Below are positions 19,373 through 19,544 of a stretch of DNA of 29,117 bases, one piece after another. Made by a program: the position numbers and the translations under genes. Source of the DNA: Vicugna vicugna (lineage: Eukaryota). A model generated the notes under the pieces. It saw only the letters and a list, made by a program, of their open reading frames with translations, had not been told where the DNA came from and did not search any database. Each line of letters begins with the position of its first letter. Positions within the stretch are counted from its first letter, which is position 1. The DNA lies in the NCBI GenBank assembly GCA_013265495.1, contig MU057880.1, forward strand, positions 434,001 through 463,117, read 5' to 3'.

Positions 19373-19544
19373 CGTCCTCCTCAGCGGAGAAGCCCGGGCC
19401 CGCATGCGGGCCGAGGCGCAGGTCCCCGTCGCCAGGCCGGTGCCACTGCGGCCGGGGGGCGGGCCGACCACCACCAGGGGGCGCGGGCGGCTGCGGGGCA
19501 GGGTGGGGTGGGCGGGGGCTCCCGGTACCGGCCCTCCTTCCGCG
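19373..19544 (-). CDS. RAPGEF2: RAPGEF2 penultimate coding exon, with an apparent internal deletion and frameshift
   Basis: The 5' part reads [15 protein letters not shown]. The 3' part reads [43 protein letters not shown] in a different frame. Acceptor tcttcactgcag, donor gtacat. Length 172 nt is not a multiple of 3. Confidence 0.88.

Follow-up and report, generated by a model that had tools for sequence, protein, structure and literature searches.

The window analysed here, a stretch of 29,117 nt from a draft assembly of Vicugna vicugna, comprises the 3' part of RAPGEF2 on its minus strand. The penultimate coding exon of this gene (also known as CNrasGEF or PDZ-GEF1) carries two PY motifs in every orthologue examined, whereas the window as assembled encodes neither of them and has the VSAV tail out of frame. 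A passage in PMC3858320 ascribes the binding of CNrasGEF to NEDD4-1, and its ubiquitination and degradation by the proteasome, to its two C-terminal PY motifs, and the same statement on the PY motifs and NEDD4-1 is made in a passage of PMC6885513, credited there to Pham and Rotin 2001. The locus thus raises the question whether this module, bound by the WW domains of NEDD4-1, has been lost from the animal or from its assembly.

A broken reading frame in the penultimate coding exon

The features of the locus are as follows (positions in the window).

21638..22203, minus strand: preceding coding exon of RAPGEF2, 566 nt, ending CTC ATT G/gt, i.e. in phase 1
19373..19544, minus strand: penultimate coding exon of RAPGEF2 as assembled, 172 nt, 82% GC, acceptor cag/CG and donor ACG/gtacat intact
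19501..19544, minus strand: 5' part of the penultimate exon, in frame with the upstream exon, encoding (A) plus 14 residues
19500..19502, minus strand: junction in the penultimate exon, with about 128 nt absent relative to Camelus (from tblastn and exon lengths)
19373..19502, minus strand: 3' part of the penultimate exon, 43 orthologous residues in the "old" frame, out of frame with the 5' part
19381..19383, minus strand: TGA ending the frame as written, 8 nt before the last exon junction
18417..18442, minus strand: coding part of the last exon, (E)DEQVSAV plus stop, intact, in need of phase 1
19477..19518, plus strand (the G-rich strand): G-quadruplex (G4) motif, with the core GGGTGGGGTGGGCGGGGG at 19501..19518, the start of which coincides exactly with the junction

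The penultimate exon lies between a pyrimidine-rich acceptor (...cttcactgcag/CGCGGA) and the donor AGGACG/gtacat. The last coding exon starts at 18442 behind the acceptor ...ttggcag/AAGATG, reads E-DEQVSAV when the penultimate exon supplies one base, and ends with the stop at 18419..18417. With phase 1 at entry and phase 1 required at exit, an exon of 172 nt, which is not a multiple of 3, breaks the frame, and two bases are left over where one is needed. From the entering frame 14 orthologous residues are read, followed by a foreign tail of 39 residues (CPAAARAPWWW...GLLR) and the TGA at 19383..19381. The orthologous peptide resumes in a different frame at 19502 and stays open through to the EDEQVSAV-stop. 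In tblastn the match in the upstream frame ended with TPP (19501) and the match in the old frame began with PAPQ (19502); both frames share 2 nt (CC) at 19502..19501, and owing to this overlap the position of the junction is known to within 2-3 nt.

PPGY and PPDY are absent from all three frames of the assembled exon. The VSAV PDZ ligand, encoded at 18431..18420, is out of frame as assembled, and would be in frame with either a 300-nt exon or a skipped one. Downstream of the junction the old frame agrees with the Bactrian camel model P0127 in 42 of 43 residues, and the last exon does so in 8 of 8. An open old frame by itself means little at 82% GC, and it is the identity to the Bactrian peptide that counts. 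The frame break is a deterministic property of the sequence, to which a test against chance is not applicable.

Transcripts are spared nonsense-mediated decay (NMD) when the stop and the last exon-exon junction downstream of it are less than about 50-55 nt apart. The premature TGA falls within this distance (8 nt from the exon end at 19373), and escape from NMD is therefore predicted. On all these points the initial annotation, made from the sequence alone, was reproduced: it had described a 172-nt exon with phase 1 on entry and phase 1 needed by the next exon, a switch of frame in the orthologous peptide at about 19502, the loss of both PY motifs and of the VSAV ligand from the frame as written, the 39-aa tail and its stop, the predicted escape from NMD, and the intact downstream frame with its EQVSAV stop.

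Identity and integrity of the gene outside the exon

A protein search with the preceding exon gave 1181 proteins at E <= 0.001, from 3678 candidates. Its translation (22203..21638) was 99% identical to dromedary RAPGEF2 and the next-best species reached 89%, among the best 120 of the 1181 proteins listed. By tblastn, 185 of 189 residues of this large exon were identical to dromedary and 184 of 189 to Bactrian camel, i.e. four to five of the 189 differ from Camelus. The paralogue, presumably RAPGEF6, is located on another scaffold, with 50% identity in the corresponding exon (L003, G000:C3773:7701167-7701400, plus strand). The assignment of the gene to RAPGEF2 in the initial annotation was thereby confirmed. 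Nine further exons of the paralogue were seen in the same assembly.

The frame break itself is the one observation that would fit a decay of RAPGEF2 to a pseudogene in this lineage, in which it would be one lesion of several. However, all other exons were found in order on one scaffold: at least 21 of the 30 matches to the Bactrian protein are in descending order on the scaffold of the window (C1000) and extend over Bactrian residues 118-1678, at 73-100% identity over the matched stretches and with some exons possibly unlisted, and the other 9 of the 30 fall on the scaffold of the paralogue. Moreover, the four other RAPGEF2 exons in the window have open frames, splice sites are intact, and the corresponding exon of the paralogue is also intact in the same assembly, with a PPGY and a PPDY of its own. 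Decay of the gene is accordingly hardly credible.

Read-through of the donor of the large exon into the intron (window 21588..21637, minus strand) extends the frame of that exon. Similar read-through ends are found in the dromedary model P0123 and in unnamed transcript-derived mammalian ORFs (P0143, P0137, P0166 and P0172), and intron retention after the large exon may be a common minor transcript form. Compared with the dromedary read-through model P0135, the window has, within 56 intron codons, about 5 residue differences and one indel that changes the frame.

The absent segment in relatives

Camelus species keep an exon of 300/297 nt with both PPGY and PPDY, the Bactrian exon comprising 99 codons (300 nt). 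Relative to the latter the window falls short by 128 nt, a segment that encodes 42 residues in the Bactrian camel, and relative to the 306-nt form (e.g. the chimpanzee model with 101 codons) it falls short by 134 nt. The loss of about 134 nt given in the initial annotation thus holds against the 306-nt form; with the nearest relatives as reference it has to be lowered to 128 nt.

The closest protein cluster has seven members, namely six dromedary models and Bactrian XP_074232894.1. A whole exon with PPGY and PPDY is present in six of them (five dromedary models and XP_074232894.1), and the seventh is an intron read-through model. The initial annotation had proposed a comparison with other camelids, and an in-frame exon of about 300 nt with PPGY/PPDY was indeed found in both dromedary and Bactrian camel, albeit both belong to another genus than the window. 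From these sequences the intact Camelus exons are taken as the ancestral camelid state and, coming from another genus, not as a same-species control.

In a wider set of 19 orthologues (17 mammals, one bird and one lizard), which took in ruminant, hippo and porpoise sequences from large RAPGEF2 clusters, PPGY, PPDY and ALQRSRM were kept in 19 of 19, and conservation within the exon is highest in the stretch missing from the window. The tract after RSRM, on the other hand, varies in Cetartiodactyla, with exon lengths of 273 nt in porpoise, 276 nt in cattle and 297/300 nt in Camelus, as compared with 306 nt elsewhere. The length changes in these relatives are all in frame and all downstream of the PY motifs.

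These comparisons bear in two ways on the possibility that 128 nt beside the G4 motif have really been deleted, out of frame, be it in an allele that is private or polymorphic or by fixation in the species or lineage. The different lengths of the second half of the exon in Cetartiodactyla would be in line with unstable DNA at this place. In contrast, the function-bearing motifs of the lost segment are invariant in all orthologues examined, the changes tolerated in relatives spare both the frame and the PY motifs, and neither the downstream frame nor the last exon of the window exhibits any decay.

In Cetartiodactyla the second half of the exon is not only shortened but also enriched in Pro, Ala, Gly and Arg, and a 15-residue form takes the place of RPVNKPQWHKPNE(S/C)D, which is found in all 6 other placental mammals examined. 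Together with the GC content of 82%, this second half looks like the outcome of a lineage-specific, GC-biased drift of the C-terminal tail.

The same exon in the dromedary and Bactrian models

The Camelus models themselves differ over about 23 residues of the penultimate exon, where dromedary has GRPPRGPRPAAAPPPGVAGPPPP (P0003) and Bactrian camel has 24 other residues (P0127). The difference looks like two compensating indels, and the window sides with the Bactrian reading of the disputed stretch. Since the models disagree in the manner of a compensated frameshift, at least one camelid assembly must be wrong in this exon, and the comparison of the predicted proteins shows its GC-rich tract to be hard to assemble correctly. 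The dromedary models furthermore end with ADHIDQ and not with EDEQVSAV; this end and the disputed stretch are probably consensus and annotation errors of the dromedary record.

Dromedary KAB1281950.1 and its four sister models, when set against Bactrian XP_074232894.1, are thus troubled in the same exon and the same GC-rich tract as the window. They differ from it in that the Camelus models keep the PY motifs and have the frame restored, whereas the window lacks 128 nt and its frame is not restored. As the dromedary models are frame-scrambled there, the penultimate RAPGEF2 exon appears to be unreliable in camelid assemblies generally.

Searches for independent sequences of the locus

The 6.3 kb surrounding the exon are represented in 20 public runs: 91-93% of the sampled words occur in 14 runs, which come from several studies, and 20-33% in five RNA runs; these figures refer to the surroundings and do not address the junction itself. 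The 14 well-covered runs may be counted on the side of a real deletion, with the same restriction that they say nothing on the junction.

The protein collection searched for camelid ORFs comprised 5.8 billion proteins. The 120-aa ORF over the exon gave one match among 243 candidates, which was a dromedary model, and no same-species sequence. With the preceding exon, 91 matches were obtained among 403 candidates for proteins of 103-329 aa, none of them above 92% identity and none camelid-like, and for proteins of 330-2000 aa the dromedary cluster was the sole camelid group among the best 120 of the 1181 listed. Llama and alpaca models were looked for in 10 large RAPGEF2 clusters, and no camelid was found among the 137 members listed. 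An exact 24-nt scan of metagenome contigs with the 3' half of the exon gave 0 matches, and the literature on RAPGEF2 and alpaca yielded nothing on the structure of this gene.

Sequence context of the junction and state of the assembly

The GC content is 82% over the exon and reaches 84% in 100-nt windows at the junction. The G4 motif at the junction comprises at least four G-runs separated by 1-nt loops; the whole window has just 5 motifs of this type (5 on the plus strand and 0 on the minus strand). The assembly has a size of 2.03 Gb in 12,405 pieces, and the scaffold of the window is 2.37 Mb long. In the 129 kb of this scaffold that were read there is a single run of N (1,409 N; G000:C1000:463118-464526), which begins directly after the window in the intron between two RAPGEF2 exons. 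It follows a run of 12 G at the window end and has flanks of 71% and 68% GC, which suggests that it may be an assembly gap, i.e. that the assembly failed in GC-rich DNA. The junction in the exon is clean, free of both N and ambiguous bases, and N are seen elsewhere in the assembly.

The initial annotation had held a collapse of the assembly to be at least as likely as a real loss. The indirect evidence does point to a fault in the assembly, but "collapse" is the wrong word for it because no repeat flanks the junction: a search for direct and tandem repeats at the junction revealed none flanking it, the only ones found being an 11-nt tandem repeat of 2.1 copies in the intron (19321..19343) and one 9-nt pair that is 222 nt apart and away from the junction. 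Repeat-mediated collapse was therefore rejected as the mechanism, and a drop-out or a false join, in DNA that is GC-rich and prone to G-quadruplexes, is the better fit.

A search of the same assembly for the missing peptide gave 14 matches at E <= 10, from 46 candidates, and did not locate it at any other place. Significant matches were confined to the exon of the window (E 3e-20, residues 31-99 only) and the exon of the paralogue (E 1e-13, 50% identity).

Assembly errors in GC-rich DNA have been described before. Short-read and older assemblies lose GC-rich parts of genes and gain false frameshifts, with structural or sequence errors in 26-60% of genes, according to a passage in Kim et al. 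2022, Genome Biol 23:204 (PMC9516821). The resemblance to the window consists in the absence of a GC-rich coding segment from a draft that seems to be gapped, by which the frame of an otherwise intact and conserved gene appears broken. That paper stresses 5' exons and promoters and counts indels of <10 bp as frameshifts, whereas the window lacks 128 nt of a 3' exon and has no N gap. With all three technologies examined by Weissensteiner et al. 2023 (PMC10519405), namely Illumina, HiFi and ONT, deletion errors are more frequent at G4 motifs, and the window has a canonical G4 motif at the junction. The errors measured in that study are mostly small, and a loss of 128 nt would need a coverage drop-out or template jumping.

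A false deletion as the most probable explanation

We infer that the 172-nt exon is a false deletion in the draft assembly and that the fault lies in the assembly rather than in the animal, with a probability of about 0.77. This reading is favoured because all examined relatives keep the missing piece, because the splice sites, the last exon, the downstream frame and the rest of the gene are intact, because an exon of 82% GC with a G4 motif at the junction is found in a gapped assembly, and because the dromedary model is frame-scrambled in the same exon. In strongly conserved genes, false frame breaks in GC-rich draft exons far outnumber real out-of-frame losses. As to the course of events, about 128 nt of very GC-rich coding DNA beside the G-quadruplex motif would not have been recovered, owing to low or absent read coverage or to polymerase jumping in library preparation, and the two sides would have been joined without a gap at the overlap of 2-3 nt. 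The real gene would then have an in-frame, Camelus-like exon of about 300 nt, with PPGY and PPDY docking the WW domains of NEDD4-1, followed by the intact exon for the EDEQVSAV PDZ ligand.

Several observations can be held against an artefact. The junction is free of N although elsewhere the assembly seems to leave N where it fails, the absence of the missing piece from the rest of the assembly fits a real deletion equally well, and the intact relatives represent another genus. Furthermore, G4 motifs and microhomology of 2-3 nt are also hallmarks of real deletions, and deletions from stalled replication are expected to leave an overlap of 2-3 nt beside a G4 motif. A real deletion would thus be in line with the clean junction, its 2-nt overlap directly at the G4 motif, and the lack of the missing piece in the whole assembly. 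On the other hand, the GC-rich G4 context and a draft assembly predict exactly such an error. Taken together with the invariance of the lost motifs, this leaves a real deletion as an unlikely but not a negligible explanation. Less probable still is that the deletion arose at the G-quadruplex and is fixed or common in a South American camelid, with loss of the PY motifs and of the PDZ-ligand tail.

If the deletion is false, as we prefer to read it, RAPGEF2 will end in a false C-terminus in gene models derived from this assembly, or its protein will be labelled low-quality or truncated, and screens for lost genes or motifs would flag a false lineage-specific loss of NEDD4 regulation.

Predicted products of a real deletion and an alternative terminal exon

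With a real deletion, the stop 8 nt before the last junction would let the transcript escape NMD, and a RAPGEF2 with its catalytic and PDZ domains intact, but without PY motifs and VSAV tail, would be made, which would probably be more stable and differently localised. A real loss of NEDD4 regulation and of the PDZ ligand, as considered in the initial annotation, is unlikely. It would amount to a naturally occurring knock-out of the module for degradation and scaffolding in a Rap1 exchange factor otherwise invariant from lizards to primates. As a case in which a conserved degron and PDZ-ligand module has been removed naturally from an essential signalling gene it would be rare, and the stability of the RAPGEF2 protein and Rap1 signalling in camelid neurons would be of interest. 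Were the deletion fixed or common, the product would carry the 39-aa frameshift tail or arise from in-frame exon skipping.

Such skipping, or the use of an alternative terminal exon, might buffer a real deletion, so that the PY region would be lost and a proper C-terminus kept. When the preceding exon is joined to the last exon the product is in frame (...GLI-E-DEQVSAV-stop), and further downstream the window has a second candidate for a terminal coding exon, which ends ...KVKAANPSSTQM and matches the C-termini of a bird and a snake model. However, acceptor and donor of the 172-nt exon are both intact, and buffering presupposes that the deletion is real to begin with, which makes it a very improbable course. 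Rescue by an internal AG acceptor was rejected, as the two candidate AGs recognised by eye in the exon lead into the same stopped frame.

Downstream of the EDEQVSAV exon, at a distance of about 1.3 kb, an open frame at 17054..17230 (minus strand) ends with ...DSGKVKAANPSSTQM-stop. The same DSGKVKAANPSSTQM ending closes the bird RAPGEF2 model P0121 and the snake model P0118 in place of EDEQVSAV, which suggests that 17054..17230 is a conserved alternative terminal coding exon without a PDZ ligand.
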